From Mytilus galloprovincialis (Eukaryota), in the NCBI RefSeq assembly GCF_965363235.1, contig NC_134841.1:74781723-74845722 (forward strand): 64,000 nucleotides of DNA, in the 5' to 3' direction. A model generated the notes under the pieces. The model did no database searches, was not told the DNA's origin, and worked only from the letters and a program-made list of their open reading frames with translations. Made by a program: the position numbers and the translations under genes. This document shows positions 3,001-61,323 of the stretch, in pieces. How positions within the stretch are numbered: the first letter of the stretch is position 1; every line of letters starts with the position of its first letter.

Positions 3001-6000
3001 TCTGTATATTAATAATAATAATGTAGTACTTTTAGATAATGAATATATATGATTTGTTGCTTATATAGGCATAGATGATCCATTTACATACATGTAATTA
3101 ATGAGATGAAGATATTTATAATGGGGAAAACACACCTTAATTTAGTAAATACTGGTGTTAAATGAAATGTAAATTTATACATGTTCAATGTGCGTCACAG
3201 ACAATGTGTGTGAAAAAAGAGTCTGATATTGATCAACAACTGGAAGTTTTTCCCTTTTTCCAGATACTGGGTGAGTTTGCTGATCTTTCTCCCAGCATTT
3301 CAAGACTTGATTTATAAGACTGACCAATTCTATAATTAAGCTCTATAAGTCTGGGATTTAAAAAAAAAGAAGGACATTTTGAACACAGGTCATCTTTGTT
3401 GTCAATGGTTGAGTAAATACTCAACGGGATGAAACCAAGTTTTTTGGTGTGGTTATCTCAATTATTAGTTCTCTGTGTAGTGTTTCGATGGCTGTTGTTG
3501 GTCCTTTTTCCTTGTTACGAGTATCTGTTTTTCTCTGACTTGTTGTTTTTGATTGCTACCATGGTATATTCTCCCTGTTTTCTGAAAGTTTTACTGGATT
3601 TAGAATCGTTTATTGTTTTGAATCAATTTGACAAAAGGAATGATTTGACCAGTCTTCTTCCCTGTTTTGAAGTTTTTATTATATATATATCTAAAAAAAA
3701 GTTTGGCCTAAAACAACAAATAGGTTTCTTTGACTACATGCTTTATATGTGCTTTGAATATCTTAACAGTCTGATCTATATACCTAGATATATATAAATA
3801 TAAGTAAACCTTCAGAACCTGACATTTTATATGAAATATATAAGTAATCCAATTTCCATATATAAATCTTAGATTTTTTATACCTTAAACAATTTTTTTT
3901 TTATATATGCATTTTTATATTTGTGTAATTTTGTAAACTGTTTGAAAATTGATTAAATTTTTTTTTTCTTCATATAAATTTCATAACCTTGTCTGAAATT
4001 TGTCTAATATTCTGAGATTCTGTGATTGGCTGAGTTTGTGAGGCCGAATTTGTTATAGGCTGAGTTTATAATAGTCTTGAGAACGTTCTTCTCTGAGTCA
4101 TAAGGGAGTCCAGCGGAAGTAGTAATATCAGAAACTGATAATAATGACGGAAAATACATCTGGAAATCATTTTATTTCAAATCATTCCCTAAATAACAAA
4201 AATAATTGTTTGGAAGGAAAACACACTACAGTTTGTATACTACTTTAAGGGTATAGAATTATATTGATTACTGTAATCTGAAAATCATCAGGCTGCTGTC
4301 CCATTGACATATAGTCCACTTCACCTATGTCTATCAGTTTTCACTTGTCAAAGTGTCAATTTCAATAGCACACTAATTATATATTTTTTTTAAATGTTGT
4401 ATAGACTATTTGCTACCTCTAGTTTTGATATTATGACTTAAAGATGTTCAGGGTTTGATCAATTAGGTATGATATTGTTCTTAATTTCTACACCTATGGT
4501 CTAAAAGTGTTTTGCTTAGGTATGTTAAACAAGAAGACAGATATTAGAATGTTACCGTCTGACACCTGTACTCTATTAGGTTCTATGATATATGTAGTAC
4601 ATTTCTTTAAACTGACATATAAGGTCAGGACTTCTGTTTCTGAGGTGTGAGTTAATGAGTTTTGGGTCAATTTGTATCTATATATGGTGTAAAAATTTAT
4701 ATATAACAGTTTACTAAAGGAGGCTTACAACATGTACAGCACATGTCTCAATAGATCAACAATAAAACCTGTTACAAGAGCCTGCAAATCTTGTGCCAAT
4801 CTAACAATTTTTCAAATTGTTTGAGGGCCAACAGACAACACAAACAAAAAATTTGACGATTTTCACTTAGTCAATGCATAATTCATTATTCCTTCATTCC
4901 TCTATATAACTTTAATCCATCTCCTTTGAATATTGAATTTAGTGGAAAATTGGGACAAACTAAAGTGTTATATTCATAGCTGATTGTTTAATGGTGTCAT
5001 TTCCTGACAGAATTTCCAGCAATTACATGTGCAAAATTGATGCTAATGAAATGTTTTGGTTAGAACAGGCTTCTGAAAACCAATCCTTCATATAGTGGGT
5101 AGAAAAGTTATCTTCAGGAAATTCTGACTTAATCATGTGCTTGAAAACTTGTGGTAAAAGGGAGTAAAGATTAAGACCCTGACTTCCTGTTCAATTACAC
5201 TTTTGTTTTGGTCAGACACTGGATTCTTTTGTATATACATGTAGCTAGCATATTCCTCTTTTTGACCTTGAAGATAAACAAATATGTTTCAGGCTGTACA
5301 TTATTAGTTTTATTTGCCAATGTCAACAAATATCCACACACATTTTATGAAAAGAAATCTATGTATTTTGAAATTGATTTCTCTTTTGAAACTAAACAAT
5401 AACAATGATTAGACATATGCCATTCACTCAGTGTGAAATATATATATTTATTCAAACACTTGACCTCGATCTAATAATAAAGATTATTCGAAACCAATAC
5501 CAGTTCCAATCAATAATATCAAAATTGTATCTGACACAACATGTGATGTTAAAAGTTAGAATATACCTATTTGAAAGTAAAATTTCATTTCCATTATTTC
5601 ATAACATATTGGATAATGAAGTCATGGCCTAGTTTTTTGACTTGTTGATGATGTGTTGTGAAATATGAAGATTTAAATGTTTGTCATGACGTCAACAGTC
5701 CCAGTTACTAGACAAACAATTCTGCGTACATGTAATTGGTGGGCTAAGTACATTTCTAAGTATTAAATCAAGTTTATGTTTATTTGTCCTTGCTCAAACT
5801 TCCTCATGCTTGTTCTTTTATTCAAAACTTTAAAATCTAAATTAAATTATGACATAAAAATTACGTTTAAAAGGAAATGTTCATCTGTTGTCAGGATGTT
5901 ATGTGATCATCGATTTTTACTCCTACACTGGATTAGTAACAGTGAAAACGTTCATTACTATAACAAAGATTGCACCACATTTTTGTGGCATCTGTTTAGG

Positions 6001-9000
6001 TGTGGGGTTAATGTTTGCGTCTCTCACAAATTTAAATATTCCTTTGTCTAGTATGTTCAAAGCAAAGTGTTTCATAAATTTATGATTCAATCCAACCTTA
6101 ATGTTGCTTGGTTTAAACCAGTCCTTGGAAACACACTTGAGTTCAGTAATTTTGAGTAACCAGAATCAGGCATGACTTAATTGAAATGCAACAGGCTGAG
6201 AATTACAGAAAAACAAGGAAATTGTGGATTACTCGGAAAAAGACATAAAAATATACCTGTATAGGAAATCAGATCATTTTGGTTCATTGATTTTGTTTTT
6301 ATTTATTTTAAAATATGTAGTATGTTTAAATCAGAGGAAGACATGCTTTTGATGGTCATGTTTTGAACAGGAAGAGACTGACTGAATAAACAGGATAAAC
6401 CTGTATAAACAATTCTCCCTTCCCTTTGTCTGCATAGTAAAGCTCAAGAGTACATGAATTGTTTATTAGTTTCAAGATAATGTGTTGTAGCTTTTCCTAG
6501 AATTTTAATTTTCTACAAAAATGGTGGTATTGATTATGGTTAAAACTTATGAATCTAATTATATAATATATTGACATAGTGCAACATGTTGCCAAATGGA
6601 ATTTGATATTTTTAAATTTGATATGCTACTTTAAATGATGTGAGCTGGTGTATGTACATATAGGGAGTGAATATTATAAAAATCATAAAACAGTAAAATT
6701 CTTCCTTTTCCTGTTTTATAATCCTGGTACCTTTGATAACTACTGTCACAACTAGATATGATTTTAGATTGAACCTTGCTTTTAAAAGCTTACCAGGGAG
6801 AAATCAAATTTATTTCAAATCTGATAGAATTATCATTAAAACAAAGCATTTTCATCCAGCAACACATTACATAATCATGAGATTCTTCTTAGTTTTACCT
6901 TCCCAGGGTCAAATGTGTGGTGTGGTGAGACATTCCATTAAATATGCTTACTCAGCAGGTTTAATGACGATGTTAATTTTGTTTTGCATGCTACAATAGT
7001 TAAGGTACATATAGGTAAGATATAGGTTTAACTCCCGGTCAGAAGAAACACCTGCTTTCAAAATTTGTAAATAACCCCAGTAAACAATATCTGCACTTTG
7101 ACTTGATCTTATCCGCTTTCACCTTCAAGTCCTCGTATTATAAACAAAAATGTGTGGAGGTATTTCATGATGATACCTTGTCACCTGACTTTGACTACGG
7201 TACTTTTTCATGCTTTAGTGGGCTGGATAATTATTTCAAGATGAACCCCAGTGGTTGGGTTGTGTTCAAGATAAGGTTCTGTCACAGGTAGTTTTGAGAT
7301 CTTTTCGTTGGTGAGTTAGTGAAACACCTCATTTTCATGGTTTAGTAAATCAGATTTTACTTATCCATACTGTTACTTTCTATTACTGAACTTGTTAGAT
7401 TCAAGACCTCATTTACCTGAGCAAGACATTTATGTGTGTCCTCTTTTGTTATTAATTTGTTTTTACTGTTGATAATAATTTTGTGGTTTACTTGTACACA
7501 TTATGATCCATCTTTAATGACATTTTTTTTGCTGCGTATATGATAATTGTTAAATTACTAAACTAGATTTGTTTGCATTTAAGGTTTCAGGAAATCTATT
7601 GTTTATTCATAAGGCCTAATTAGCATGAGTCATTTACATGTATGGTTTATATGAAAATATTGTGAAGAGACAACATTTCATCATGTATCCAAAGTTGAAT
7701 TTTGAAATTCTTCTTTTGATAAGTACATAAATCTAATTTAAACTTAATTATCATAAAATTGTCATCTTCAGTGACAAACAGAGATATAGTAAACCAGAAA
7801 TGATGTCCTTGTTACAATTTAATGCACATATTTTATTTATTAACTGCATATATATCACCAATACGAGTCCAGCATATATAAGACAAATATATGTTAAAGT
7901 AGCAGTACTTATAGCTACAACATATTCAGTTATCTAGTCATTTAAGTCCAGTTGCAGGAATATATCTAAAATTTAAAAGTGTATGTTTTCGTACATTTAA
8001 AGAAAATTTTTAATATCTTTTTAAAAAAAGCTATTTCTACATTGTCTAGATACAGAACCAGTCTTAAGACAATATCACTGCAGTTTGTTTTTTTTAAAAG
8101 AAAGACAACTCTAGCATATATGTTCATTTATAAACTAAGTCACTTTACAAAGTTGCTTCTTAAGTATTGTGTTTATATCTTTATGTTATGTCCCATCTCC
8201 TCTAAACGGAGATAAAGTGTGAATAAAGTGTGACTAATGACCATCTTTTTGTTTGCTATCGAATAAAACAGTTGTCTAGCTTTAATTTCTTTCTGCCTGT
8301 AGAATTGGAGCAGATTTTTGGTTTATAAGTCTTATAATAGTATTTACACTGTTGACGTTGTTACATTACATCTAGTTCTATAGCAAAGCATCACAGTTTA
8401 TGATATTAGTACACAGTAATGTTAATTAGTACTGAATTCAGACCTCTCAGGGCCTTATTTTCACAGCAGATGTGATGGAGGTGTAACTCAATAAATAAGT
8501 CAGAATTAATTGGTTAGGGATTAAAGGATGTCAGGTTGTAAAGTTTAGATCAGAGTATGTAGAGGATTCTTTTATTTATTTTGCTTCCTTAATTGATACA
8601 TGATTGTACTTTCAGAATCATAAGAATGATTTATTAACCTTTATGTACTGAACTTAGACAATGCATACACTTTATTTCATTACTTTTATAGGGACATTTA
8701 AAAATCAAAGCATGTTCCAGTTAAGCAAAGATACATGTAGACAGTCATGTTTACCTGGAAGGAAAATTGATGAAACGATCAGTTGATTGTAACCAAAAGA
8801 TTGTAGACTGTCTGATTTGACATTTCTTTGGAAAAAAATTCTTAAGATATGGACTTGGAATTAATTTTGATTTTATTTTTTCCTGTTGCACAGTCAAAAC
8901 CCAGTATACTGAACAGAAAATTCATTGAAATCCTATACACCACTTGAAATATTCAAATGAAAATTCTTGTGTACAGTACAGAAATGTTAGTTATTAAAAT

Positions 9001-12000
9001 TGTATACATGTATCAAATTAGATAGTCGATTCTAGTCTGTTGTGTATGATTATTTTGCCTATCTAATTTTAAAAATAGAGATAAAAACCAACAAAACCCA
9101 TGTTTGATTCATATACCTAACACTTGAAAAAATCTATAACTTTCATTAAAACATTGAGATTTCTTGAATTAACATATACACCTTCCTAGATAAAACTGTT
9201 GGGATTGTGTATGTTTGGTATGTCTGGAATTTGATATAAAGTACAAGTAATTAGATTTACTACTTTAATCCAGGTTTTTGCAATTGGTAAAAAATAATCT
9301 GTTCAACAAAGCTAAGTTAAAAGGTATTACATATGTTAATTCCAGTATTAATTTCTGTAGATCATGGTAGACAGTAGTTATGCACTATTAGGCAAATTTA
9401 ACCTTATGTCATTCAAAACAAAATTTTGCCTCAAGTGTAAACAAATTTTCAGATCCGCCTGGCCCTAGAAGCTATACAAATTTATTTCGCTATAATTAAC
9501 TTCATGGTTTTTTCACAATACATATAGATTGGAAGTCATTGAACTGTTGTTTATTATCTGTTTTAAAGTTTATGGAAGTCTATATTTTAAAAGGGTATTT
9601 TTATTAACATCATAGCTGTATGGTATATGAGGTTAACCTTTCGGATAGAAAAACAGCAAAACAGCAATGACATCACAGTCTATACCACATGCCAAACTTT
9701 AATTGTCTGGAGTTTTACTTGTCTTATGTTCAGAAAAGTTGTGGCTACCAAAGATTTGCAATTTAGGCTAAACATGTTTGCAGAACAAAAAGCTGTATTT
9801 AAAAAAAAAGAAACCGACAACCACCAAGGTTCATGACTTTGTGGTGCAGTATTCACTATTCAGGCACATTTTTTTGTATAGCACAATCCTTAGAAACTTG
9901 TCTTATGAATAAACAATGTACTTTTGATGTTTAAGGTGGATCGGGACTATTCGACTGCACATAATTTCACGCATGAATTACAATGTATTTTTCTTAAATT
10001 CGATATTATTTTTTTTAAATATTTTGATTGATTAGAAATGTTAAATCATTGTTGTTATGTCACTAAAAGAATATTTTCATTATAAGGTGTATCTGTTAAA
10101 GGCTCAAAATGACATTTCACCCATTTTCACCATTTTCCCGCCAAAATTTGGGTTTTAAGGCAAAATAATTTTTTTTCCTTATCGGTGACCTATGTTTTTG
10201 ATTTGCTCATTCTTTGAAGCTATATTTCAGCTTTATATATTACAGTTTTGGACAAAGTGTCATAGAATGTTTTTTTGATATTCCAATAAAAATATGTCAA
10301 CACTTCTATTTTCCCTATCATTTCAAAATTGAAAAATGGTCCCATTTATATACCTGTTTAAAAGTAAAATTTTGAGCTTAAATGGTCTGTGACCCCCTAT
10401 TTTTTTTAGACCAATTTTATTCACCTTCCGTAAAGAATAAAATAACTGAAAATAAGGCACTTCTGGTAGAAACTTAGTATAGGCCCAAGCCACCTTAATA
10501 TGAAAATGTTCTTATGCTGTAGATGTTAAAAAAAACAGAAATCCTTGTCCTGTATTCATGTTTTTTTTGTTGGCCAAAACACCTGAGAGATTATTATTTT
10601 TGAAGATTCTGTTGCAATATTTTGACCATGTGTTGTTTTGATCGTTTACAGTAATCATTGAACTCTGTTACACAATATATCCTTGTTACTTTATCCCATT
10701 GCTTGGTCCGTGATATGAAAAGTTAAGTTTCATTTGTACAAAAAGGGATATATGATACACCTCCCAATCCTCCTTGTTGTGTTTTGATCGTCTAATCCTA
10801 AGCAAAATAGTATTTCTATACTGCATAACACCTTATGAATCAATAACTTTTTTAACAAACAATCCTACGAAAAAATATACATTTCAGCATAATTTACTAT
10901 AAAATTGTGTTATATCGTAATATTTGTTTGTGAAAGAAATGCAGGACTTTGTGTAGTGAGCAGTTCATGTTTCCTAGTCTTTACTAAAGTTGATAAGAAA
11001 GAAAGATATTAGCACGTTTGTAGAGATACTAAACTTCTTGAGATGCAATCTTTAATTTTTATCTGGTATCTAAAAATGGCTTTATCATGGTTATTGCACA
11101 AAATCTAGTCATGCAATTGTTTGTTCCAATCAGTTTTTCACTACATTGGTTTTTCTGATGTGTGTATGCATATTATTTTTTTCCTTCACTCATAGGATAT
11201 ATGATAAGTGTTTCTGCCATGTGATGTTTTGACTGTTGAGTAAAGGTCGGTCAGAGCTGGTCTAGATAGAAGACAATAATTATGTGTAAGTTCAAAGCCT
11301 TATTTCTCAACCATTGTATCCTTAGATGTCACGTACATGAATGTTGGTAAATAAACTATATTTGTATTATCTCTTTCACCAAAGGCCAGTAAGTATATAA
11401 ATGAAAGTTAAAAGTTGACTAATATTGGCAGTGGTCCAAATGTTATCAAGTGTTGGAAATTCTATTAAATGATCTCTTAATTGTTATATTGATATCTGGT
11501 CAGGTAATTGAATCTGACTGTAAAACATACCTACTTAAGTTCATTAGTAGGTAATTGATGCAACAGGGGGTCAAGTGGGATAAAGCTTCTGTAATATCAG
11601 AATTTATTGTATGCAGGTATTATTGCAATTTTTGAAGAATGGACAAAAATGCAACATTTTAGTATTGCAATTGCAAGATAATCTGCATCATGATATATAT
11701 ATGTATCTGATTGCGAGTTCTTATTGCAAAACATACCCAGCATTATTTGCATTAATAAAAACCACACAATAATTACTGAATTAACAGTATTCAAATGGTA
11801 ACAGATATTTTATGATGTTTTTGTCTGTTGTTATGACGGATCTTCCAATACAAAAGAAGAAAATTGATAAAACAAAAAATTGGGAAAATTTCCAATTTCT
11901 TCTGAATTTATTTTTTTAAAGGTTTGATTAAAGTCTTTTGAAGGACTTTAAGGTTCAAATGAAGATTTTATTCTGAGAATTAAACATCTTAAAGAAGTCA

Positions 12001-13188
12001 CACAAACAAATACAGGAAGTTAAACAGAAAAGGAAATATGTCAAGAAACAAGTGTTATCAATTTATGAGGGATTGTTGCCAGTCTTGAAATCATTGTTGA
12101 GTGAAAATTTTCACACAATTTATTTTCTTTTAGCATTTAAGAAGATCTTTCTTATTAATTGGACTGTGAAACAATCCTCTTAATTCATTTGAAGTCTATC
12201 AAGTCTAAATACTACAAAGGTTTTATGTAAAGTTCATCTGAAGTTTGTATGGTGAAGGGTTCTAAAGTTAGAATCATTTATAAACCAATGACCTTACAAT
12301 TGTCATTTGCTGCTGCTCTATCAAGCAAGTTAGTCTGAAGCATTCTGCATTTAGTAACTATCAGAATAGTATATGCTAAACAGACAGAAATCCCATTCCT
12401 CATTAAAGTCCAGAAAATATTAAAGGGACCATATTAAAAGAGGTTGTTGTATCTGCATGTGTCAGGGTAATGAATTTGTGACATTTGCTATTCTTTTCTA
12501 TGTTGCATTGTATCTATGACTGATTTATTGTATCTTTAGAAAAATGATTTATAGGATAGTGTCTGACCAATTTATTTACATGGAATAGTAATTGACTTCT
12601 TCATGTATTATATACCATAGTAAATGACTTATTAATCAGGTGTACTTATTGATTTTTACTGCATAATGGGTTTTGACATGGTAGCTATTGTCTTTACAAA
12701 AATAGACTTAAAATGTAGGTTAGTGAAATGAGGGTAATTAATGAAAAAGATAAAAAAAAAATCTGAAGCCTTTCAAAAAATTTCTTACAAGTTAGCTCTT
12801 TTGGACCTTGAATGTGTTTAATTGAATAAGCCTGTGGATGTTATACATATTGTTTATGTAGAATATTACTCTTGTTTTGGTTGATCACATATATCTCTGA
12901 AATAGGAGTTCTGAAATCTCGACCCAGACACTTGACTTCAGAGAGAGATTTCATTATTTTTTCAACAGTAAAAGTTATTGTATATATATGAGTATGGTCA
13001 TTTGCACATATATAATATACATTCTAATGCAACAACATTTGTAACGTTCATTTTGATTGGATAACGTCACTTTCTTACATGGCATCAATTGACAATTGAT
13101 GATATGGGACGTACGCGCAAGCGCAGACGGCATATGACAGATTTTAAATACATGTTTTAACGTTGTTTTCTGTCAGTTTCATTAGAAT

Positions 13189-22639: not shown

Positions 22640-23660
22640 GATAACAAAGGGACATTCAAACTCATAAGTTGAAAGTTGACATCGCAAATTTTAAACAAAG
22701 AAAAAAAGTCAAAAAGACATCCAACAGTACACAAATTACAAAACATAAAAAACTAGACTGATCAACATGAACCCCACTAAAACTGGGGTGATATCATGTG
22801 CTCCGGAAGAGTAAGCACATCCTGATCCACATGTTGCACCCATCGTGTTGCTCAGGGTAGTACACACACAATTATTAGACTAATTAGGTTGTTCACATTT
22901 GGGGAAAAGTGGACGAGACATGTAGTTACGACAATTTGAATGTTACATTTGATATCTGTGAAACAGATATTCCATAAGGCCAATCAACTCGTGATGGCGT
23001 CTGTAAAATTAACGAAAACTTAAAACTCTTGGTTTAATAGCTTTCTTGTCAACAGCAACTCAAAGAAATCGTAATAGTAATTAAAGTCCTGGAATTCTGT
23101 ATCAGCTGGGAGATATATACTCCGTATACAGGCGCTGCCGGAATAATGATACATACAAATGGAAAGTTCACGATTGGGAAGCTGGAATCTCTTTTGTCGT
23201 AAAGTGTTAAATTTTGTATTTACGCAAGACGCGAGTTTTGTCTACAAAAGACTCATCAAACACGCTCGAATCCAAAAAAGTTTAAAAGGCCAAATAAAGT
23301 ACGAAGTTGAAGAGCATTGAGGACCAGAACTCCTAAATTTTTGCCAAATACAGCTAATGTAATCAATTCCAAGGCTCCATGTGGAAGGCAGTACCTCTAA
23401 CGTATATACATTGCGACTTGGATGGAGAGTTGTCTTATTAGTTCTCCTACCATATCTCATTTTCTGTTGTTTTAAAACGACCGTCAATTTCAATTTCTAG
23501 ATGTAAGTTAAGATATGAAGCAGAACTGTATCTGTTGTATCCCTGTCTGATGAATAAATGCGTATAACATAGTCACCAAATTTTTGATTATTAAAGGAGA
23601 GAACATCATTTAAAGAAAGGAAATTAAATTAAACGATACTGCAAACTTCAATGTTTTCTT
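22640..23660 (-). mobile_element. Interspersed repeat family copy contiguous with Penelope-like RT tail (orientation -), carries a decayed hammerhead motif
   Basis: Homologous in reverse orientation to 48763-49320 (e.g. GCAGCGCCTGTATACGGAGTATATATCTCCCAGCTGATAC vs its reverse complement at ~48920; CGTGATGGCGTC block shared). The 23560-23660 segment matches the RT motif-C tail of the 48690-48760 PLE fragment. Smaller fragments at 24760-24970, 32084-32340 and 52150-52200. Confidence 0.45.
23221..23265 (-). ncRNA. Hammerhead ribozyme motif, degenerate (TTGATGA..AAAAC)
   Basis: Reverse complement reads CGTGTTTGATGAGTCTTTTGTAGACAAAACTCGCGTCTTGCGTA. HHR architecture with point changes in the catalytic core. 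Confidence 0.35.
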
Positions 23661-23831
23661 GTATGAATTCAGCCTCAGTTGAATAAAGAAACAAGTCGGC
23701 AAGAAGAGAAGCATAGTTGGTTCTCATGGGAATACGAATTGTTTGTTGAAAATAAAATTAAACACGTCAATAACTATGAAACCCGTTTATTTGCTGATAA
23801 TAGCTATCAAAGGTACCAGGATTATAATTTA

Positions 23832-23875
23832 GTACGCCAGACGCGCGTTTTGTCTGCACAAGACTCATCAGTGAG
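23832..23875 (-). ncRNA. Hammerhead ribozyme motif, near-intact (CTGATGA core, GAAAC->AAAAC)
   Basis: Reverse complement reads CACTGATGAGTCTTGTGCAGACAAAACGCGCGTCTGGCGTAC, followed by the conserved TAAATTATAATCCTGGTACCTTTGATA tail. Confidence 0.45.
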
Positions 23876-25747
23876 TTATAAAGTCAAAACAAGTACAAAG
23901 TTGAACAGCATTGACGATCCAAAATTCAAAAAAAAAAAAAACTGTGCCAAATACGGATAAAGTAACTATGCATGGGATATGAAAATCCGCAGTTTATCGA
24001 AAAATTCAAAGTTTTATAAACAGGAAATTTATAAAAATGACAACATAACATTGATGCTGATACTTTGGAAAGATTGTTCTTGGAGCACTAGGAAGAGTCA
24101 GCAAAATAACGTAGTTTGTAAGGTTAATTATGTAGTAAGGTATCCAATACAGTGACAGAAAATCCAGTTCTTCATCTTTGGTTGAATATCCAGAGGAACA
24201 AACGTAGCTATGATTATGAAGAATTTCCTTCTTTGTAAGTTTCGATGGGGTTTAAAAGTTGACTTTCTAAGTGAAATGTCAATACAATTTCCAAGCATTT
24301 AGTACAATGTGTTTTACACACAAAACGATGTAGTTTTTGGCTTTACCTGCATGGACAACACTATATTTGTCCAGTAGATAAAACAAGTGTTTTGCAACAT
24401 TTGGGTCTGTACAAATTGATGTAGTATGGGTATTCATAGAGACATTCAGTTTTCAATTCTTATTTGTGTCACAGCCTTAATCAATTCGGGAAGATTATAT
24501 AGGTCTTCTTTCTCGACTTAATACCATTACCTGGCATAATCCTCGACTTGATATATAATTATTTTGAAGTTGTAGTTCGATTGATGGATTTAGGCGGACG
24601 AAATGTCGGGCCTTTGGATAACACATTTTGCGGAGAAGTGTGATTGACAATGCTTAGGTCATAAGTAATAACGTTGCCAGCCGGACAATATATGAATGGA
24701 GAACTAGCACAGATGCAGAGGTTTAGACTTGAAGTCGTCAATATTGAGATCCAACATCACGTGATTGTAGAGTAAGAACATCCTGCTCCATATGTTTAGT
24801 TTAGTATATTTATATTAAAAAAAGGTCGAAAGATACCAAATGGTTATTCAAATTGATAAATCGAAAATAAACTGACAACGCCAAGGTTAAAAAAAGAAGC
24901 AGATATCAATAGTACACAAAACACAACATAAAAAAAGACTAAGCAACACGAACCCTCAAATGATAGATACAGGCTGATCTTTAAAATGTAAACTGCATCG
25001 AGGAATCATCAGTTCGGAAGTCAGGACTTCGGTACCGATTACCTCAACATTGACTACACAATTAACATTTTGTACGACTGACGTAATCTAAAAAAGACTG
25101 CAACGTGTATATTTCTGTCTGACAGGTATCATTTGACATGGACATCGTTTTCATGGTTTATTGGTCAATGTTAAGCCTTCTTTGTTTAGTTTGGTTCTTA
25201 GATACTATATGCAATTTGATCCAAATAATAATTTTAAGGTGTACATATCTGTTTTGCATGCTTTATTGATCAATATAAAACTTTCATTGTTTGGTCTGTT
25301 ACATTTATACTATATATAAGCAATAGGTCAACAATATTTGGTGTATGGCAAGATTGTGGGGTGTACATGTATTCATGGTTTGGTTTATCTGACATTACCT
25401 CATTTTCTTTGATCATGTAAAGTTTATGTGATACATGAAGTTAAACTTTATATCAACATAAATTCAATGGCAAATAATACATGCGAAACATTCCAGCGTG
25501 TGCACTTATATTTATTAACCCTTTCATCAGCCCAGTAGTCAGCACTTCGGTGTTGACATGAATATCAATTATATGGTAATTTTCATAAATTTCCTGTTAC
25601 AAAACTTGGAATTTTTCGAAAAACTTAGAATTGTCTTATCCCAGGAATTGATTACCTTATCCGTATTCAGCACAACTTTTTGGAATTTCGGATCCTCAAT
25701 GCTCTTCAACTTTGTACTTGTTTGACTTTATATTTTTTTTTTATCTG

Positions 25748-25793
25748 AACGTCACTGATGAGTCTTATGTAGACGAAACGCGCGTCTGGCGTA
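25748..25793 (+). ncRNA. Hammerhead ribozyme (type I-like minimal HHR), intact catalytic core
   Basis: ACGTCA-CTGATGA-GTCT(tatgt)AGAC-GAAAC-GCGCGTCTGGCGTA. Has CUGAUGA and GAAA boxes, 4-bp helix II with 5-nt loop, short helix III (CGC/GCG) and a GUA cleavage triplet. Helix I is ~1 bp, as in dimeric PLE/retrozyme HHRs. Confidence 0.65.
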
Positions 25794-28023: not shown

Positions 28024-28071
28024 AGCGTCACTGGTGAGTCTTATGTAGACAAAATGTGCATCTGGCGTACA
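28024..28071 (+). ncRNA. Hammerhead ribozyme motif, degenerate (CTGGTGAG...AAAAT)
   Basis: AGCGTCACTGGTGAGTCTTATGTAGACAAAATGTGCATCTGGCGTAC. Confidence 0.3.
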
Positions 28072-29351
28072 AAATTATCAACCTGGTATATTTGATGAGT
28101 TAGTTTTACAACCACTGGGACGATGTCACTGCTGGTGGAGGTTTCGTACCCGAGAGTACCACCAGCCTAGAAGTTATCACAATTGTGGTGACATGAATTA
28201 TCTCTTATATGTTCATACCTATAAATTAACTTATCACAAAATTGAATGATTCGAATAACAAAGGATTTTAACCATAATAATAGATTACCGTAGCTGGATA
28301 TGCAAAATATTTCGAAATATAGGCCCTCAGCGGTCTTCAACTCAGCACTTTATTATTGATATGGTCATATTTATAAAATAACTTATCACAAAGCCTTGAA
28401 TTGTTCGAAATAACTATATAGTTATTGTTTCGCCCCGACGCTCTTAGTTCTGGATCTTTCGACCCATCTCTGTTATGAGATGTCTTTTCGATTTCGTTCT
28501 AACTGGTCTTTCATTTCAGCCTCACCTGTTCTGCGCCCAGATATCTTCGGACATATTTTTCCTTTCCCTTCTTGTATCCATCTTAGGGCAACTCTGGTCT
28601 TATCTTCACCTGGTCTTCGTAGAACATGACCAATCTATCTTCATCTTTATTGCCACAGTAGAGTTCCATGTTGTAGCCCTGTTGTTTCATTGGAACCTTT
28701 GTTTATGATCTTACGTGATCAGAATGTCCTTAAAAGCTTTCTAAGGTAGTCGTTGTAAAAACTGGAAAGATTGTTAATGTCTTTTCAGTCATTCTTTAGT
28801 ATTCTGTTCTATATGACAGCACTGATAGTACACATCTACAGTATAGGGTAATTTTAAGGTTCCGTCTGATGTTGCTATACTTCAAGATGTTGCGTAGCTT
28901 TAAAAAGCAGTTCTTGTTTTTCATATTCTGGCTCGGATGACTTTATCTACTCATCCATCTAATGCTACAATGCTGCCTAGGTAAGAGAATGATGAACTGC
29001 ATTACAGATGTGTCCCATTCATATCTATTATAGGAGGCTTTTAAAAGATGTTAAGGGGTATAAACTCTGATTCGGTGATGTTTAGTCCAACCTGACTTAC
29101 ATTCCCTTGTAACTTGGTGGTTTTGGTTTGAATCTATTTTTAAAGATGTGCCAGTAAAGCCAGATGATCTGCGGTGTCCAGGGTTTGAAGTCATAAAACT
29201 TTGCTCACTGCTTGGAGCACAAAAATCATGCTCGAAACATGAAATCCAGCATTTTGATTGGTTGATTTTGGAGTATGAGTACAAAAAAATGACCCGAAAG
29301 TTTTATGACTTCAAGGCCAGATCTTGGAAGATCTTCCATAGTTCGAGCTAA

Positions 29352-29377
29352 ACTAATGAGTCTTTTGTAGACGAAAC
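29352..29377 (+). ncRNA. 5' half of a hammerhead motif (CTAATGAGTCTTTTGTAGACGAAAC) interrupted by transposon insertion
   Basis: Joins with 33154-33175 (CGAAACGCTTGTCTGTCGTA) to restore CTAATGA-GTCT..AGAC-GAAAC-GCTTGTCTGTCGTA once the element and one TSD copy are removed. Confidence 0.5.
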
Positions 29378-29413
29378 TATGGAACGCCGTAACTGCCTTA
29401 TGGTACTTCATTC

Positions 29414-29742
29414 TTTATCATGATGAGGTTTTTCTTTATTATGATGAGGTTTTTCTCTATCATGATGAGGTTTTTCTCTATTATGATGAGCTTTTTCTTT
29501 ATTATGATGAGTTTTTTCTCTATTATGATGAGGTTTTTCTTTATTATGATGAGGTTTTTCTCTATTATGATGAGGTTTTTCTTTATTATGATGAGGTTTT
29601 TCTCTATTATGATGAGGTTTTTCTTTATCATGATGAGGTTTTTCTCTATCATGATGAGCTTTTTCTCTATCATGATGAGCTTTTTCTCTATTATGATGAG
29701 CTTTTTCTTTATTATGAGGTTTCTCTCTATTATGATGAGCTG
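29414..29742. repeat. Left subterminal array, ~16 x 21-bp unit (TATCATGATGAGGTTTTTCTC)
   Basis: Tandem imperfect 21-mers, alternating TCATGATGAGG / TTATGATGAGG variants. Produces the spurious ORFs 29398-29673(-) and 29420-29746(+). Confidence 0.8.
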
Positions 29743-29812
29743 TTAGAAGGGAATCATGGGAAATTAAGAGAATTATGGGAAATTAAGAGAATTAAGATAA
29801 ACAAAAAGAAAA

Positions 29813-30187
29813 ATGGCAGAATCAGAAACGTTGAAAGTTTTTCGGAAAGTTGGCTTGCTCCATGTGCGGGAAATGTTTGATAAAGAAAAAATAACACCAA
29901 ATATTGTCAGCATGCTTTCAAAACATGAACTGGAATATCTAGGAGTTTCCATTCCAGCCCATATGATGACACTGCGAATGGAATGCATTAAGTATGGAAA
30001 CATGAAACCTGAGAAAACTGATAGTTTGGATGGCCATCCAAAATACCATGTCGACAAAAATGTACTGGAATCGTTGTTGGATTGTGACTTTAAGATATCG
30101 GACAGTGGAAATCGCTTTCAACTCTCAAAGAGAACAATCTATCGACGGATGGCTCATTTTGGACTACAGAAAAGAGATTTTTTCTGA
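29813..30187 (+). CDS. Transposase N-terminal part: SAM-like domain + helix-turn-helix; frame broken in T6 run at 30178-30183
   Basis: MAESETLKVFRKVGLLHVREMFDKEKITPNIVSMLSKHELEYLGVSIPAHMMTLRMECIKYG resembles a sterile-alpha-motif fold. LSKRTIYRRMAHFGLQKRD is HTH-like. Deleting one T in GATTTTTTCTGAC joins this frame to the 30030-31130 frame (QKRDF|SDIDDDNLD). Confidence 0.5.
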   Translation: MAESETLKVFRKVGLLHVREMFDKEKITPNIVSMLSKHELEYLGVSIPAHMMTLRMECIKYGNMKPEKTDSLDGHPKYHVDKNVLESLLDCDFKISDSGNRFQLSKRTIYRRMAHFGLQKRDFF

Positions 30188-31130
30188 CATTGATGATGAC
30201 AACCTTGACAATATACTTTCCGGCATTGTGGTAGACTTTTCACGTTGTGGCGAACGCATGTTGCGTGAAATACTGAAAGGACAAGGAATTAAAATACAAA
30301 GATGGAGGTTAAGAGATGCCATTCATAGAATAGACTATGCTGGTACTCAAGAAAGAAAGACCGGTCGACTACACAGGCGTGTATACAACGTAATGGCACC
30401 GAACCACTTGTGGCACATAGACAGTAACCATAAATTAGTAAGATGGAGATTCATTATACTGGGTGGAGTTGATGGGTTCAGTAGGCTGATTATGTTCCTG
30501 CAGTGTCGTGACAACAACACTTCCGCCACCGTATTGAATAGCTTCCTCTGTGGAGTAGCGAATTTTGGTATATCCTTAAGGGTTCGGTCAGATAAGGGAC
30601 TAGAAAATGTATCTGTGGCGGATTTCATGTTGTCAAAACATGGTGACGGCAGTATGATTACAGGCCCAAGCACGCACAATCAGAGAATAGAGAGATTATG
30701 GAGGGACGTTTACGAGGGTGTTTTGAGCTATTTCTACAACTTATTCTATCATTTGGAAGATCAGGGAATTCTAGATCCACTAAGCGAACAGCATTTAGTA
30801 GGCCTGCACTACATTTACATGGATGAAATTAACAGAAGACTTGATATTTGGACTCAAGCTTGGGCAAGCCATAGAATGAGAACAACAAAATCATCTCCTA
30901 TCAACATTTGGATCGCCGGTCAAATACAGAATCAAGTTGGTACACAACTCAGTGAACGAGATTTAGTTGATTATGGATTAGAGGGAAACGTCGATGCGGC
31001 TAATCTTACGGACGACGGAAGGCCAATTAATGACCAACTTATTAGAGCAGATTTCAATAGGACAGGTACCAACTTTGGCATTGATGACTTTGTGAATTGT
31101 GTTGAATCCTTTCTGCACAAGCCTGATTGA
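30030..31130 (+). CDS. Transposase catalytic part: second HTH + DD(33)E integrase-like (rve-type) core
   Basis: WHIDSNHKL (D) ... 56 aa ... RVRSDKGLENV (D) ... 33 aa ... HNQRIERLWRDV (E). Spacing and surrounding residues match the retroviral-integrase/IS481-type DDE fold (established knowledge about the fold; family assignment not made). Confidence 0.6.
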   Translation: MAIQNTMSTKMYWNRCWIVTLRYRTVEIAFNSQREQSIDGWLILDYRKEIFSDIDDDNLDNILSGIVVDFSRCGERMLREILKGQGIKIQRWRLRDAIHRIDYAGTQERKTGRLHRRVYNVMAPNHLWHIDSNHKLVRWRFIILGGVDGFSRLIMFLQCRDNNTSATVLNSFLCGVANFGISLRVRSDKGLENVSVADFMLSKHGDGSMITGPSTHNQRIERLWRDVYEGVLSYFYNLFYHLEDQGILDPLSEQHLVGLHYIYMDEINRRLDIWTQAWASHRMRTTKSSPINIWIAGQIQNQVGTQLSERDLVDYGLEGNVDAANLTDDGRPINDQLIRADFNRTGTNFGIDDFVNCVESFLHKPD

Positions 31131-31799
31131 ACTTTTCAGTGACTTTTTGCATACAATAACAAGTAATATTTTACATGATCATTGTTTATTTCTTCGCCTG
31201 TTTTAGTCTTGTTTTTGTTTTCCGTCATTAAACTCATCTGGTACACCTATCTATAAAAGATGATGTTGTATGATTGCCAATATTAATGATACAACTCTTT
31301 ACATGAGACCAGATGACACAGACATTAACAACTATGCATTGTAGGTCACCTCACGGTATTCAACAATAAGCAAATCACATACCACATAGACCGCAATAAA
31401 AGGCCCTGAAATGACAATGTAAAACCATTCAAACGAGAAAACTAATTTATGTACAAAAATTAAAGAAAAACAAATATGTAACACATAAACAAATTACAAC
31501 CACTGAATTACTGGCTTCTGATTTTGGACAGGCACATAAATACAGAATGTCATGGTGTTAAACATGTTATCTGGAGCCCCAACTCTCCCTCTAACCTGGA
31601 ACAGTGGTGTAGCAGTACAACTTAGGAACGGACTATAAAAAATCAGTTGAAATGGCTAAACTCATCAGATGGATAAACATACAAATACTACTAATACAAG
31701 TGGACATGGCCGCGCGAGTACTTGTACATCCTTACAAAAGAAAACTAATAAAAAAAGATCATACATCTACGACTAAATTTTCAATTAGTACACATCAAC

Positions 31800-32560
31800 C
31801 AACTAGATACAATGAATATCCATAAAATGACCTTGAACCCTATTTATTTTCAAGGTCATGCGTCAAAGGTCAAGATCATTAATGGACTTCAAATTTTCAG
31901 CAGACACCCTTATGAACACAGTCACTCGAGAATCAAAATCTCTCAATGAATGTCAAGCAAGCGTAGAACAATGGATGTGCATAGCAAGACCTTGAACCCT
32001 AATGATTTCAAGGTCATTGGTCAATGTCCTTTGAGAATTTTTCATCCAATATCATCCTTGCGAACACTGTAGAATTACTATTGCTAAATGGATATCAACC
32101 ATTTTGGTACAATGAAAATCCATAATAGAGGAACTAAAGATACCAGAGGGACGGTCAAACTCATAAATCGAAAATAAACTGACAACACCTGGCTAAAAAG
32201 GAAAAAGACAAAACATAGAAAACTTAAGAATAAGCAACACGAACCCCACCAAAAACTAGGGGTGATCTCAGGTGCTCCGATAGGGTAAGCAGATCCTGCT
32301 CCACATGTGGCACCAGACATGTTGCTTATGTTAGAAAAAATCCGGTAAATAGTCATAACAAGACCTTGAACCCTATTGATTTACAAGGCCATGCGTCAAA
32401 GGTTTAGGTCTTTATGGGACTGAAATTTTCAGCAGAAAAGCTTATGAACACTACAATCAAAATATGTCAATTGATTTCAATTAAATGGAGTACAATGGAT
32501 TTCCATATCAAGACCTTGAACCCTAATTGAATTGATTTTCAGGGTCATTTAAGTACTTAG
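31800..32560. repeat. Internal tandem repeats (~270-bp period, 3-4 units) with palindromic core AAGACCTTGAACCCTA..TTCAAGGTCAT, inside the DNA transposon
   Basis: Units near 31800, 31980, 32350 and 32500 share ..AAGACCTTGAACCCTAATGATTTCAAGGTCATTGGTCAATG.. / ..GCGTCAAAGGTCAAGATCATTAATGGACTTCAAATTTTCAGCAGA.. Confidence 0.45.
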
Positions 32561-32851
32561 ATTTAATTTTAGCATTTAGGGTATAGTTAAATATCTGCAT
32601 AGCTTGACAACTCAGATCACATCAGAATTATTTGATATAGGATAAAAAGAGTTGGTTGAGGAATACAAAACATATAAATACAATATTTTTATTGAACAAA
32701 TTAAAAGAAAAATGGTAACAAATATTAAGATACTCAATCTTATTTTGTGACTAGATGAACACTAAATATGTCTTTGGTATCTACATAAGAAGTCAAAGGG
32801 GCGTATATAGTATCGGAGAGTGCAACGACATGGGCATTGTTTGGATATTAA

Positions 32852-33118
32852 GCTCATCATAATAAAGAAAAACCTCATCATAAAAGAGAAAAACCTCATC
32901 TTGATAGAGAAAAAGCTCATCATAATAAAGAAAAAGCTCATCATAATAAAGAAAAACCTCATCACAATAGAGAAAAACCTCATCATAATAAAGAAAAACC
33001 TCATCATAATAGAGAAAAACCTCATCATAATAAAGAAAAACCTCATCATAATTAAGAAAAACCTCATCATGATAGAGAAAAACCTCATCATAATAAAGAA
33101 AACCTCATCATGATAAAG
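32852..33118. repeat. Right subterminal array, ~13 x 21-bp unit (reverse complement GAGAAAAACCTCATCATGATA)
   Basis: Mirror image of the left array. Produces the spurious ORFs 32762-33178(-) and 32820-33113(+). Confidence 0.8.
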
Positions 33119-33454
33119 AATGAAGTACCATAAGGCAGTTACGGCGTTCCATACGAAACGCTTGTCTGTCGTACACAATTATAATCCTGTTATATTTGAT
33201 GAGTCATTCTTCAGCATATTTGATTAACGTTTACCGCATGTTGCACTTTGGTCAGCCATTATTCTAGCTGATAATTCCCGATGGGAATTCCATGTTTATT
33301 GTTCGATACCAGATTCGGGTTTCAATATTAATATATATGAAAAGTTTATTTTTTTGTTCTTTTTTGCTGACTTATGGCACAACTTTTTGGAATTTTGGGT
33401 CCTCAATGCTCTCTAACTTTGTATTTGTTTGGCTTTTTAACTATTTTGATCTGA

Positions 33455-33500
33455 GCGTCACTGATGAGTCTTATGTAGACGAAACGCGCGTCTGGCGTAT
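33455..33500 (+). ncRNA. Hammerhead ribozyme (intact core), in the repeat unit that hosts the DNA transposon
   Basis: GAGCGTCA-CTGATGA-GTCTTATGTAGAC-GAAAC-GCGCGTCTGGCGTA, then ATAAAATTATAATCCTGGTACTTTTGATAACTATT. Identical core to 25748-25793. Confidence 0.65.
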
Positions 33501-33722
33501 AAAATTATAATCCTGGTACTTTTGATAACTATTATAACCCTCTGCTTTTATTCATATCCAATATACATAAAACATAAATGAGGGTCATAGTAAGACGCAC
33601 AACGAAGTTGTTTTTAATGTATGTTTTAGTCTTATGGTATATGGTGTAAATAAACAAAAAAGAAAGCATGTTTAAGACATCATATTTTGAGATGGACCAA
33701 ATCAGCCTATCTGGACTATGTG

Positions 33723-33725
<3 letters not shown>

Positions 33726-33786
<61 letters not shown>
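33726..33786. repeat. (AT)n microsatellite, ~30 units
   Basis: Seen directly. Source of the YIYIYI ORF 33532-33915(-). Confidence 0.9.
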
Positions 33787-33790
<4 letters not shown>

Positions 33791-35044
33791 CAGATATGAC
33801 CGACAATAACCAGCGAGGAACACTGAATAACATGCTCTTGACAGCCACATAAAGCAAGTGACGGGCTTATAAGCGCCAAACCCTTTTCTAACCAGAGAAA
33901 GCGGTATACCAGCACAACATGGATATTGCTCGACTAATACGATTGAGAAGAAGCTAACAACTTACACAAAGACACAAACTACCGATCATACATTTCTCGT
34001 TGTTATAAAAAGCTAGTGCAAAACCAATTACAACTAATGCATAAAACATTTATTTTCTCTCAAGTATCAATCAATTCAAATCGAAAGGATTAAGTATGAG
34101 ACGCAACAACTTTGTGCAGTGGAAATTATAAGTACCTGTGGAACTATAATAAATTTGTAGCAATACATATTTATATTTATCAAAACAAAATCAATAGTTC
34201 CTAATACAACGCTATTCAAAATAAATATCTTTATTCCAAAGACCAATGATAATTCTTATTCTACACTTGTACTTGTCACAAAGTAATGGTATGTAGTTTA
34301 TATGACAGTAAAAATTTGATTTGAAGAAAAAACGAATACGACAAGAAGGACTTACTGACCTTCTTCACTTGAACGTGTTGAAGATTATCAATTATTAATA
34401 AGCTGTTACACGATGATGTATTTAAAAAACTCAGTTGCACTTCACCTGCATATTAACATAACACGTCAATCACATGTCCTATTGCGTTTAAAACAAACAA
34501 TGCTACTGTCATTGGTTTAAAAATAACGTCATTCTCGTGCACAAGACTTGCATCACAGTCAAGAAGTGCATATGCTTCCAAATGTATTTTTCTGTGGGAA
34601 AAAAATGTTCTCTCTTTTATTAGTCTATGGTTCTTTTGATATTTCTAAATGATAATTAATCTTAAGCTTTTATACTCTTTTAAATATCAAAGAAAAATAA
34701 ATCATTGACATGTATATTCCATAGCTTTTATCTACTGCTTTTCATTTCATTTAAAGCCTGTCACTAAACTCTTAAACTTAATACCCGTCTAGCAGTCTAA
34801 TAAAAATTCACATATATTTAGGGATTATTTACACGAACATTCGGTAAAAGAAATTTTAAACCCTGCATGTATCGTGCTTTTCGCTGAAAGACCCTTTTCT
34901 TTAATTATGGATCACCATCATTCTGCATTGACAATAATATTTTGGCGTAAATATGTTACACCGGGCGTACTCCCTCATCAATGTATCTAAAACATGACTA
35001 AAATTAGGTGTTTATTATGAATACGCCACATTAAAATCAGAAAA

Positions 35045-49320: not shown

Positions 49321-50573
49321 TTCTATGTTATGTCTTTGTACTATTATTTGTCTGTTTTGCTTTTAGCTGTTGTCATATTATTTTCAATCTATGAGTTTGA
49401 ATGTCCCTCTAGTATCTTTCGCCACTCTTCAAAGTTTTTTTTATCCCATCCATAAATGGCAAACGGTAAAATAAGCAATAAAGAGAAAACAATGCATTTC
49501 TGTTATGTATAATTTTAAGAGCACCTACCACGTTATATATTTAAGATAAAACGTTGTTTGGATAGGGTAAATTAATTTAAAAAAAATCAAACAAATATAT
49601 AGCTAAAACTACGGGTACTAGGTTGCATTTTAATTTGAATGAAAAGTAGGTATCCGCAGTCTGCAAAAAAGACACATCTAGTTGGGTCCGTCCTCTGTAC
49701 ATGCATTTAATCTATATATTGGTCTTTTACAGCTATATATGTTGAATTTGTATCTTCTTCATCATCTACATAACATAACAATAAGAACAGTAAACATTAT
49801 TTATCGCTATAGCTGATATAGGTAATGAGAAATACTAATTTTTTTAAAGTTTTTATGGCAATTTTCCGACATGTTTTTCTTATTTTTTTCAGATGATTTG
49901 TTTTAATTGGTATGTTCTAATAAAGAAGGATTCCTATTTTGCAACTTCGATCACGTTTCGGATTGAACCTTATCAAATGAATTGAGTATTAAACTACATT
50001 ATTTACGATCAATCTAAAAAATTTCGATTGATTTTGAATCAAATTTTTCTCAAAAATATTAATAATTATCAATAATACATCTATAATTAGAGTATTTTTT
50101 GGCGAATGGTTTTCGTATTTAAACTTTTGTCGTGGTAACAAAGCCAGTAACATGAAAGATATCTTTAAATAATATTCGTATACAAGCAAAAACAAAATGA
50201 AAGTATTCCATGCGTTCACTGTTTTATCAACTTCTGCATAAACATATATACTTTTTAAAAGTCAACATCCAATCATAAATTTAAACGTCATCAAAGATGT
50301 CTTTTAATATCAATTGATATATGTTTAAAGTTCCACAAGACCGAAATGATGAATGTAATTGAAATCGTCTTCGACAAGGCCGATTAAACTGCCTCATTTT
50401 TAGATTGCTTTAAACGTTATTGTTGCTGAACTCTACTTGTCTTTTTGTTTTTTTCAATGTTGTGTCGTGAGGATGCTATCACACAGAGGAACATCCAATA
50501 TCTCTTCTAATTCATAATATTAAAAGCTAGAGTTTCGTATGAAGTTAGAACTGAAATTCAGTATAAGTAATAC

Positions 50574-57845: not shown

Positions 57846-57893
57846 GAGCGTCACTGATGAGTCTTCTGTAGACAAAGCGCATGTCTGGCGCAC
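57846..57893 (+). ncRNA. Hammerhead ribozyme motif, mildly degenerate (CTGATGA intact; GAAAC->AAAGC)
   Basis: GAGCGTCACTGATGAGTCTTCTGTAGACAAAGCGCATGTCTGGCGCA, then CTAAATTATAAGCCTTGTACCTTTTGATAGCTATT. Confidence 0.4.
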
Positions 57894-61276: not shown

Positions 61277-61323
61277 AGCGTTACTGATAAGTGTTTTGTA
61301 GACGAAACGCGAGTCTGGCGCAA
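61277..61323 (+). ncRNA. Hammerhead ribozyme motif, degenerate (CTGATAAG..GAAAC)
   Basis: GAGCGTTACTGATAAGTGTTTTGTAGACGAAACGCGAGTCTGGCGCA, inside the SINE-like insert of the second duplicated block. Confidence 0.35.

Follow-up and report, generated by a model that had tools for sequence, protein, structure and literature searches.

A 64,000-nucleotide stretch of the genome of the mussel Mytilus galloprovincialis (assembly GCF_965363235.1, contig NC_134841.1, positions 74,781,723-74,845,722, forward strand), here called the window and used as the frame for all coordinates unless another locus is named, carries a 3,776-bp mobile element at 29378-33153. Sequence comparison very probably places this element among the DNA transposons of the IS3EU/GingerRoot superfamily, in the 'NHKL(V/I)RW' branch. 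The Mytilus family that it represents thus appears to lie within a known superfamily and to be new, or at least not demonstrably catalogued. In practical terms the region should be annotated as an IS3EU/GingerRoot DNA transposon rather than as a gene or a novel type of element, and the gene models that Mytilus, Crassostrea and Pinctada assemblies list as 'Integrase catalytic domain-containing protein' encode transposases of this superfamily. Specialists may note some modest additional points, namely a real SAM domain, a conserved 20-bp terminus and a 21-bp phasing of subterminal repeats, none of which makes this a new element class.

Assignment to the IS3EU/GingerRoot superfamily

IS3EU has been a Repbase superfamily since 2013. 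GingerRoot elements were described in 2019 by Cerbin et al. (PMC6839031); they share the features of IS3EU and form one lineage with it (PMC10045372). The reference DDE cores of Data S3 of PMC10045372 were compared by BLASTP with the 105-residue core of the window element, and the assignment is one by similarity. Two families of the oyster Crassostrea gigas stand out, IS3EU-6_CGi with 76.2% and IS3EU-3_CGi with 75.2% identity. Lower identities are found for IS3EU-1_SK (64%), IS3EU-1_CVi (59%), the coral GingerRoot AD_GR-001 (50%) and the GingerRoots of Selaginella (33-38%, with SL_GR-020 at 38%). Every IS3EU/GingerRoot reference matches the core at E<=8e-9, whereas Ginger2 reaches only E=1.7e-4 and Ginger1 only E=0.08, and IS3 gives no match.

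The similarity is not confined to the core. Two full-length homologues, P0021 and P0018, match the window protein with 53-54% identity at 97% coverage, and their cores are 100% identical to IS3EU-6_CGi and 99% identical to IS3EU-3_CGi, respectively. Both share the layout of SAM domain, helix-turn-helix (HTH) segment and DDE core described below, so this architecture belongs to families already catalogued in Repbase. Because the full-length identity is only ~54% and the host genus differs, the window element is, judged from its protein, a member of a separate family from IS3EU-6_CGi and IS3EU-3_CGi.

The anatomy of the element agrees with the published descriptions. IS3EU elements have TA..TA termini and target-site duplications (TSDs) of usually 6 bp (PMC10045372), and the ends of fungal members read TAYGG..CCRTA (PMC12730594). 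The window element ends in TATGGAAC...GTTCCATA, that is TATGG...CCATA, and is flanked by CGAAAC on both sides. Its terminal inverted repeats (TIRs), which in the superfamily exceed 30 bp and in GingerRoot measure 100-150 bp, are perfect over 55 bp and form part of arms of 301-362 bp. The protein lacks an HHCC domain, and its first catalytic aspartate, D203, lies within the expected 100-300 residues from the N-terminus, with the SAM and HTH regions upstream of it.

Termini, arrays and target-site duplication

The bounds of the element are set by a 36-bp terminus, TATGGAACGCCGTAACTGCCTTATGGTACTTCATTC, of which the window contains just two copies, one at 29378 on the forward and one at 33153 on the reverse strand, with 0 mismatches and 0 occurrences expected by chance. 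A first-pass annotation, made from the letters alone, had proposed this inverted terminus together with a one-T indel. Both hold, and a repeat scan extends the perfect stretch to 55 bp, the indel being the first difference at position 56. The left TIR (29378-29432, forward strand) begins with TATGGAACGCCGTAACTGCC, and its terminus is conserved in bivalve and metagenome relatives; the right TIR (33099-33153, reverse strand) ends with GGCGTTCCATA.

Each end also bears a tandem array of a 21-bp unit with the consensus CTcTATtATGATGAGgTTTTT. The left array (29411-29739, forward strand) holds 15.8 copies with a 42-bp alternation, and the right array (32853-33120, reverse strand) holds 12.8 copies of the same unit in inverted orientation. 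Across the window the unit has 26 near-matches, every one of them within the two arms, compared with 0.05 expected by chance. Including the arrays, the arms measure ~362 bp on the left and ~301 bp on the right. The 13-16 tandem copies and array-bearing TIRs of ~300-370 bp reported in the first pass are hence confirmed. We presume the units to be binding sites of the transposase.

The two copies of the TSD, CGAAAC, occupy 29372-29377 and 33154-33159. With the element and one of these copies taken out, the joined flanks match three paralogous repeats of the window in ungapped alignments, which shows a precise insertion with a 6-bp duplication. Both copies and the reconstructed empty site bear out the duplication as it was first proposed.

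A transposase with SAM, HTH and DDE parts

The transposase is encoded by an open reading frame (ORF) at 29813-31130, split by one extra T in a T-run on the forward strand (30178-30183) into 29813-30187 and 30030-31130. The copy in Mytilus trossulus has five instead of six T at this place and a continuous frame. Once repaired, the single-exon product has 438 residues; the homopolymer frameshift had been recognized correctly in the first pass, while the length given, ~439 residues, needs a small correction. The same applies to the catalytic core, where D203 (30420-30422), D260 (30591-30593) and E293 (30690-30692) are spaced by 56 residues as proposed and by 32 instead of the 33 once counted. This triad is conserved within the family.

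Homologues were compared in a family alignment of 48 full-length proteins, throughout which the three-part architecture of SAM, HTH and DDE is conserved. A five-helix SAM domain spans codons 1-62 (29813-29998, forward strand, as are all parts of the gene) and is identified by profile, homologues and fold matches alike. A profile of the first 68 residues searched against the PDB retrieves the SAM domain of tankyrase-1 at E=2e-7, then those of CNK2, BICC1, ANKS6 and SARM1; nearly all listed matches, and every one at E<0.5, are SAM domains. Among the 48 homologues, SAM_1 is annotated in 19 and SAM_2 in 15. The AlphaFold model of the N-terminal segment consists of five helices. The 50 PDB structures that Foldseek ranks closest to this model all represent SAM domains, and the model superimposes on tankyrase-1 with TM-scores of 0.64-0.70 and a root-mean-square deviation of 1.9 Å. 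What had been read as a SAM-like N-terminus is thus well founded.

The SAM domain is followed by an HTH DNA-binding segment at codons 82-115 (30056-30157; helices 82-90, 95-102 and 106-115), which is degenerate in the window copy and matches HTH_23 in 42 of the 48 homologues. A second all-helical segment, seen in the structure model at codons 128-183 (30195-30362), links it to the RNase H-fold DDE core at codons 190-374 (30381-30935). Pfam assigns this core, residues 190-374, to PF24764 (rva_4, 'Integrase core domain') with 8.9e-73, and in fold the full model most closely resembles retroviral integrases, IstA, TnsB and MuA. The HTH segments and the integrase fold claimed earlier are in this way substantiated by the homologues, the helical model and the fold matches. 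Of the Pfam families named at the time as a check, SAM_1 and SAM_2 are found in homologues and an integrase core is found strongly as PF24764, whereas rve (PF00665) itself matches only below threshold. No zinc-finger family, HHCC included, was detected in the 48 homologues. The C-terminal tail (30936-31130) is modelled with low confidence and ends in the stop codon at 31128-31130.

Can this gene still work? Compared with the M. trossulus copy it has suffered a 24-nt in-frame deletion of 8 codons at ~31023, in a segment that is present in the 48-protein alignment, and substitutions in the HTH segment relative to both, including E106K at a nearly invariant residue. From its sequence, the window copy can no longer make transposase and would be non-autonomous by mutation. 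It is a fairly recent insertion, as its termini and TSD are perfect. The M. trossulus copy carries an in-frame stop codon of its own. Programmed frameshifting at the T-run, of the type known from bacterial IS3, was considered and ruled out, as the frame continues through this position in 47 of 47 aligned homologues and in the M. trossulus copy, each homologue being one uninterrupted ORF.

Relatives and shared traits of the clade

A search of protein collections returned 1,534 homologues. The best, from M. trossulus, is 94% identical, and further relatives with ~45-60% identity over 92-99% of the length come from M. coruscus, Crassostrea, Pinctada, Mizuhopecten, Dreissena and corals. At the DNA level, the M. 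trossulus locus L001 contains a full copy at 5585-10077 with the terminus and arrays of the window element and the TSD GAAAAC; it is 92% identical to the window element over the first 2.4 kb and 96.2% in the coding sequence. Other genomic copies with matching termini, whose absence would have spoken against the element as first proposed, therefore exist. A second locus, L002 of M. coruscus, is rearranged and retains one recognizable terminus.

More distant families repeat the same design. L013 of M. coruscus belongs to a different family (64% protein identity); its 32-bp termini are perfect and begin with TATGGAACGCCGTAACTGCC, its arrays have a 21-bp unit, and its TSD is CACCCT. A full copy in M. 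edulis, L014, has 57% protein identity, array-bearing arms of 318 bp and the TSD TGTTAG. In Crassostrea angulata (L003, 57% protein identity) the terminus TATGGAACGCCTCAACTGCC precedes an array in which a 21-bp unit occurs 24 times; the right end of this copy was not found within 5 kb. Together with the window and L001, the loci L013 and L014 make four independent full copies with 6-bp TSDs.

Scanning metagenome contigs with TATGGAACGCCNNAACTGCC gave 76 stretches, ~50 of which are genuine termini; they include at least three further families, and many contigs break at the arrays. Contigs of the 'TTATATGTTTAT' family contained no long ORF. The sequence of the array unit diverges across families, while its period of 21 nt and an ATGATG/ATGCTG core with TTT ~3-5 nt downstream are kept, and these traits recur in Mytilus, Crassostrea and the metagenome families. 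The 20-bp terminus TATGGAACGCCnnAACTGCC is conserved across transposases that are only ~55-60% identical, which makes it a convenient probe, as the ~50 metagenome termini attest. Taken over all these copies, the foldback-like arms are by their sequence a conserved trait of the clade, and the conserved arrays would fit phased transposase-binding sites better than a chance expansion of a satellite.

Some further features accompany these copies. Between the left array and the start codon of the window element the repeat scan finds 2.5 copies of a 19-bp repeat (29747-29794, forward strand). Downstream of the ORF lies a non-coding 3' region of 1.7 kb (31131-32852, forward strand) with internal dispersed repeats at 31795-32535. 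The M. trossulus copy matches this region colinearly at ~89%, so the region belongs to the family and a nested insertion is ruled out as its source. A short interspersed repeat within it (32136-32333) occurs elsewhere in the window at 24829-24893 and, on the reverse strand, at 49207-49337. As the M. trossulus copy carries this repeat too, it was gained before the two copies diverged.

Extra solo ends stand beside full copies. At L003 two left ends point in the same direction (2811-3170 and 4351-4888), and the element at L014 is directly preceded by a stray GGCGTTCCATA right end (7532-7542), a pattern that suggests clustered or nested insertions. A host gene at L014 (10513-17320, reverse strand), encoding SAM_1 and HECT domains, lies ~1.2 kb downstream of the transposase ORF and apparently inside the element's inferred bounds of ~7568-12419. 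Its SAM domain is probably a coincidence and not the source of the SAM domain in the transposase. Finally, the oyster transposase P0008 is found on identical contigs of ~1.6 kb, consisting of the ORF and ~150 bp on each side, in 24 contigs from separate run assemblies (Logan; L004-L012). These are compatible with transcription or with assemblies that break at the arrays.

A possible route of transposition

The anatomy outlines how such an element could move. A transposase of ~440 residues, with its N-terminal SAM domain, its HTH DNA-binding modules and a core like that of retroviral integrases (D203, D260, E293), would most likely bind through the HTH modules to the conserved 20-bp terminus and the phased 21-bp subterminal repeats. 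The two ends would then be brought together, with oligomerization of the SAM domains of arm-bound protomers probably helping. The freed 3'-OH ends would be joined to target DNA across a 6-bp stagger, and repair of this stagger would leave the 6-bp duplication. In the case at hand the copy landed in the CGAAAC core of a hammerhead (retrozyme-like) repeat and acquired its frameshift, its 8-codon deletion and its HTH substitutions later. At present it could be mobile only if an intact relative supplies the transposase.

Support for parts of this outline comes from Styx, an IS3EU element of the fungus Zymoseptoria. New Styx insertions with 6-bp TSDs arose in pedigrees, apparently by a non-replicative route, and a copy with a defective integrase was mobilized in trans (PMC10853768). 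By analogy to this only functional study of an IS3EU relative, cut-and-paste transposition is favoured for the element described here.

Bacterial IS3 and IS481 move in another way, by copy-out/paste-in. An IS3EU family that likewise transposes replicatively through a circular intermediate is thus an alternative to be weighed, and there is phylogenetic reason to consider it: in a published tree IS3EU groups with IS481EU, near IS481 and IS3 (PMC10045372). On the other hand, the termini here are TA..TA and not the TG..CA of IS3 and IS481 (PMC10045372), and the movement of Styx was interpreted as non-replicative (PMC10853768). On balance we regard the copy-out route as improbable for this family.

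Some observations weigh against the assignment and the cut-and-paste outline built on it. Only three loci of the exact family were retrieved, namely the window, L001 and the rearranged L002. That this IS3EU family transposes is read from the anatomy of its copies, as are the suggested binding of the 21-bp units and the oligomerization of SAM domains. The extra T in the homopolymer may be a sequencing error; the decay of the copy is argued independently by the 24-nt deletion and the HTH substitutions. By analogy with the route used by bacterial IS3 and IS481, the excision chemistry of eukaryotic IS3EU elements may also be other than cut-and-paste.

A more speculative idea concerns the IS3EU clade of marine invertebrates as a whole. 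It combines a SAM domain resembling the polymerizing one of tankyrase with 13-24 units spaced at exactly 21 bp and, because 21 bp correspond to two helical turns, every unit faces the same side of the DNA. SAM domains joined head to tail into a filament along each arm could pair the ends or regulate transposition, and such a filament would constitute an undescribed form of transpososome assembly. We consider this tentative and rather doubtful as it stands. That the Mytilus family should, in addition, be truly biased to the hammerhead core of retrozyme repeats is less likely, for reasons given in the following section.

Insertion into a hammerhead repeat

The host DNA at the insertion is itself part of a repeat. 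Its 5' half (29347-29377, forward strand), a decayed type-I hammerhead repeat (CTAATGAGTC...GACGAAAC), is cut by the element, and the 3' half resumes at 33160; the left TSD copy coincides with the catalytic-core CGAAAC of this repeat. Rfam recognizes a Hammerhead_3 fragment at the insertion point (29336-29382) and two Hammerhead_1 motifs that are intact, one at 25749-25792 scoring 36.1 bits and one at 33455-33498 scoring 33 bits. With the element removed, the interrupted copy and the one at 33455 are 326 bp apart, which resembles the tandem retrozyme repeats of 350-390 bp in M. galloprovincialis, whose genome harbours ~5,000 hammerheads (PMC7229834). By their sequence, the hammerhead repeats of the window match these mussel retrozymes in kind.

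Does the element home to the hammerhead core, as Dada homes to small-RNA genes? The coincidence is suggestive: the CGAAAC of the catalytic core is precisely the sequence duplicated, and with only ~5,000 such ribozymes in the genome (PMC7229834) a random hit on a 6-bp core is a priori rare. The other copies speak against such homing. The M. trossulus copy inserted at GAAAAC, in non-hammerhead DNA, and Rfam detects no hammerhead in the loci L001-L003. When 57 independent flanks of elements bearing the terminus were compared (window, L001-L003, L013, L015-L089), CGAAAC or GTTTCG adjoined it only at the two ends of the window copy. What the flanks show instead is a weak, symmetric and degenerate preference, with A at -9 in 38 of the 57 (p=5e-6), a T-rich position -2 and G or C at -1, and a TSD interior that is AT-rich. 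Both window flanks fit this preference, and the hammerhead site thus happens to suit it. Moreover, such repeats are locally dense, with at least nine hammerhead fragments in the 64 kb, and the Dada transposase is a different protein (PMC3706591). Homing to hammerheads is accordingly very unlikely. The simplest reading is a single event in which one mobile element, inserting at a weakly preferred site, happened to hit and disrupt another, which is not evidence of targeting.

As for the repeats themselves, type-I hammerheads with a very short, loop-less palindromic helix III are predicted from sequence at 25749-25792, 33455-33498 and 63288-63312, and decayed copies at 23235-23346 and 23789-23933 (both reverse strand), 28035-28100, 57853-57907 and 61283-61317. 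An (AT)n microsatellite at 33720-33795, just downstream of an intact repeat, yields only spurious low-score Rfam matches.

Relation to other transposons

The first-pass annotation had found no named superfamily that the element matched and had considered an undescribed family or subfamily. What would favour an undescribed superfamily, or a deep subfamily of integrase-type transposons, is novelty in the literature: in its accessible part we found no report that combines a SAM domain, a transposase and IS3EU, nor any description of 21-bp subterminal arrays in accounts of IS3EU and GingerRoot. The conserved 20-bp terminus was not found described there either. At the superfamily level the proposal is nonetheless already refuted by the core identity of 75-76% to two catalogued IS3EU families, by the presence of all published IS3EU hallmarks and by the match to the dedicated Pfam family rva_4 at 9e-73. 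It had been offered on the understanding that no strong full-length match to a catalogued family would turn up, and the homologues P0021 and P0018, with cores 99-100% identical to such families, essentially provide one. We therefore give this proposal hardly any credence, and the IS3EU/GingerRoot superfamily remains by far the better home.

A Ginger1, Ginger2 or Polinton-type integrase element, or a fragment of a long terminal repeat (LTR) retroelement, would share the rve-like fold and, for Polinton, the 6-bp TSD, yet this is the least credible reading of all and already refuted. Core matches to Ginger reach only E=1.7e-4 and 0.08, Ginger has TG..CA termini and 4-5-bp TSDs, and Ginger1 and LTR integrases carry an HHCC domain (PMC10045372, PMC6839031). 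A genuine HHCC integrase in the window at 43585-44307 looks quite different. The 3.8-kb element has a single ORF and lacks LTRs as well as genes for a polymerase, a protease or a capsid.

The nearest candidates named in the first pass, Dada, Ginger and IS481-like elements, do not survive comparison: Dada fails on its protein, Ginger and IS481EU on termini and TSD length. The transposase of Dada has ~1,000-1,400 residues, a DxxH motif after the second D, CCCC and CCHC zinc fingers, similarity to hAT, MuDR and P, and usually introns (PMC3706591). It is ruled out by the 438-residue, single-exon product of the window element, with its SAM domain, HTH segment and rve-like core and without zinc fingers. 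Dada elements share a TSD of 6-7 bp, and the window copy also sits in a small structured-RNA motif, but the strict targeting of small-RNA genes is absent here, as the M. trossulus copy and 55 other flanks lie outside hammerheads. Ginger1 and Ginger2, with TG..CA ends and TSDs of 4 bp or 4-5 bp (PMC10045372, PMC6839031), are excluded by the TA..TA ends and the 6-bp TSD, and the Gypsy-like integrase of Ginger1 with HHCC and GPY/F motifs has no counterpart here, where the best Ginger match stays at E=1.7e-4 and HHCC is lacking. IS481EU, known from parabasalids, close to IS481 and with TSDs of ~4, 15 or 25 bp, is set apart by description, through the 6-bp TSD and the bivalve host. Polinton/Maverick elements of 15-20 kb, encoding a protein-primed DNA polymerase, protease, ATPase and capsid, are ruled out by the single ORF in 3.8 kb and have only the 6-bp TSD in common.

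The likeness to Drosophila Foldback elements, proposed from the arms, is an architectural trait and no evidence of homology. Foldback elements likewise have long inverted arms made largely of short tandem repeats, and their TSDs measure 9 bp; they are not known to be associated with an rve-type transposase. The window arms differ in beginning with a unique conserved terminus of at least 36 bp, and the element encodes an IS3EU transposase and has a TSD of 6 bp, so that the tandem-repeat arms of the first description stand and an identity with Foldback does not.

Within the superfamily, the oyster families IS3EU-6_CGi and IS3EU-3_CGi are the closest by core, with 76% and 75% identity, and the window element shares the TA..TA ends and 6-bp TSD of the superfamily; the related oyster element L003 has the 20-bp terminus and 21-bp arrays as well. 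GingerRoots of Selaginella lepidophylla, corals and fish also have 6-bp TSDs, TA..TA ends, long TIRs (100-150 bp in Selaginella) and an integrase-related DDE core without HHCC or GPY motifs (PMC6839031). The plant elements are much more distant, their TSDs are reported as GC-rich and without nucleotide preference, in contrast to the A at -9 and the AT-rich TSD interior found here, and neither array-bearing TIRs nor a SAM domain is reported for GingerRoot (PMC6839031). Styx, by its description, resembles the window element in its IS3EU-type DDD/E transposase and its 6-bp TSD (PMC10853768), but differs as a fungal element of 7.9 kb with four coding sequences.

The HHCC integrase mentioned above belongs to a separate retroelement of the window (41981-46216, forward strand). 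Its genes are ordered Gag with a SCAN-like capsid, integrase (H2C2, rve and SH3) and reverse transcriptase with RNase H, according to Pfam. The integrase lies upstream of the reverse transcriptase, unlike the standard Gypsy order.

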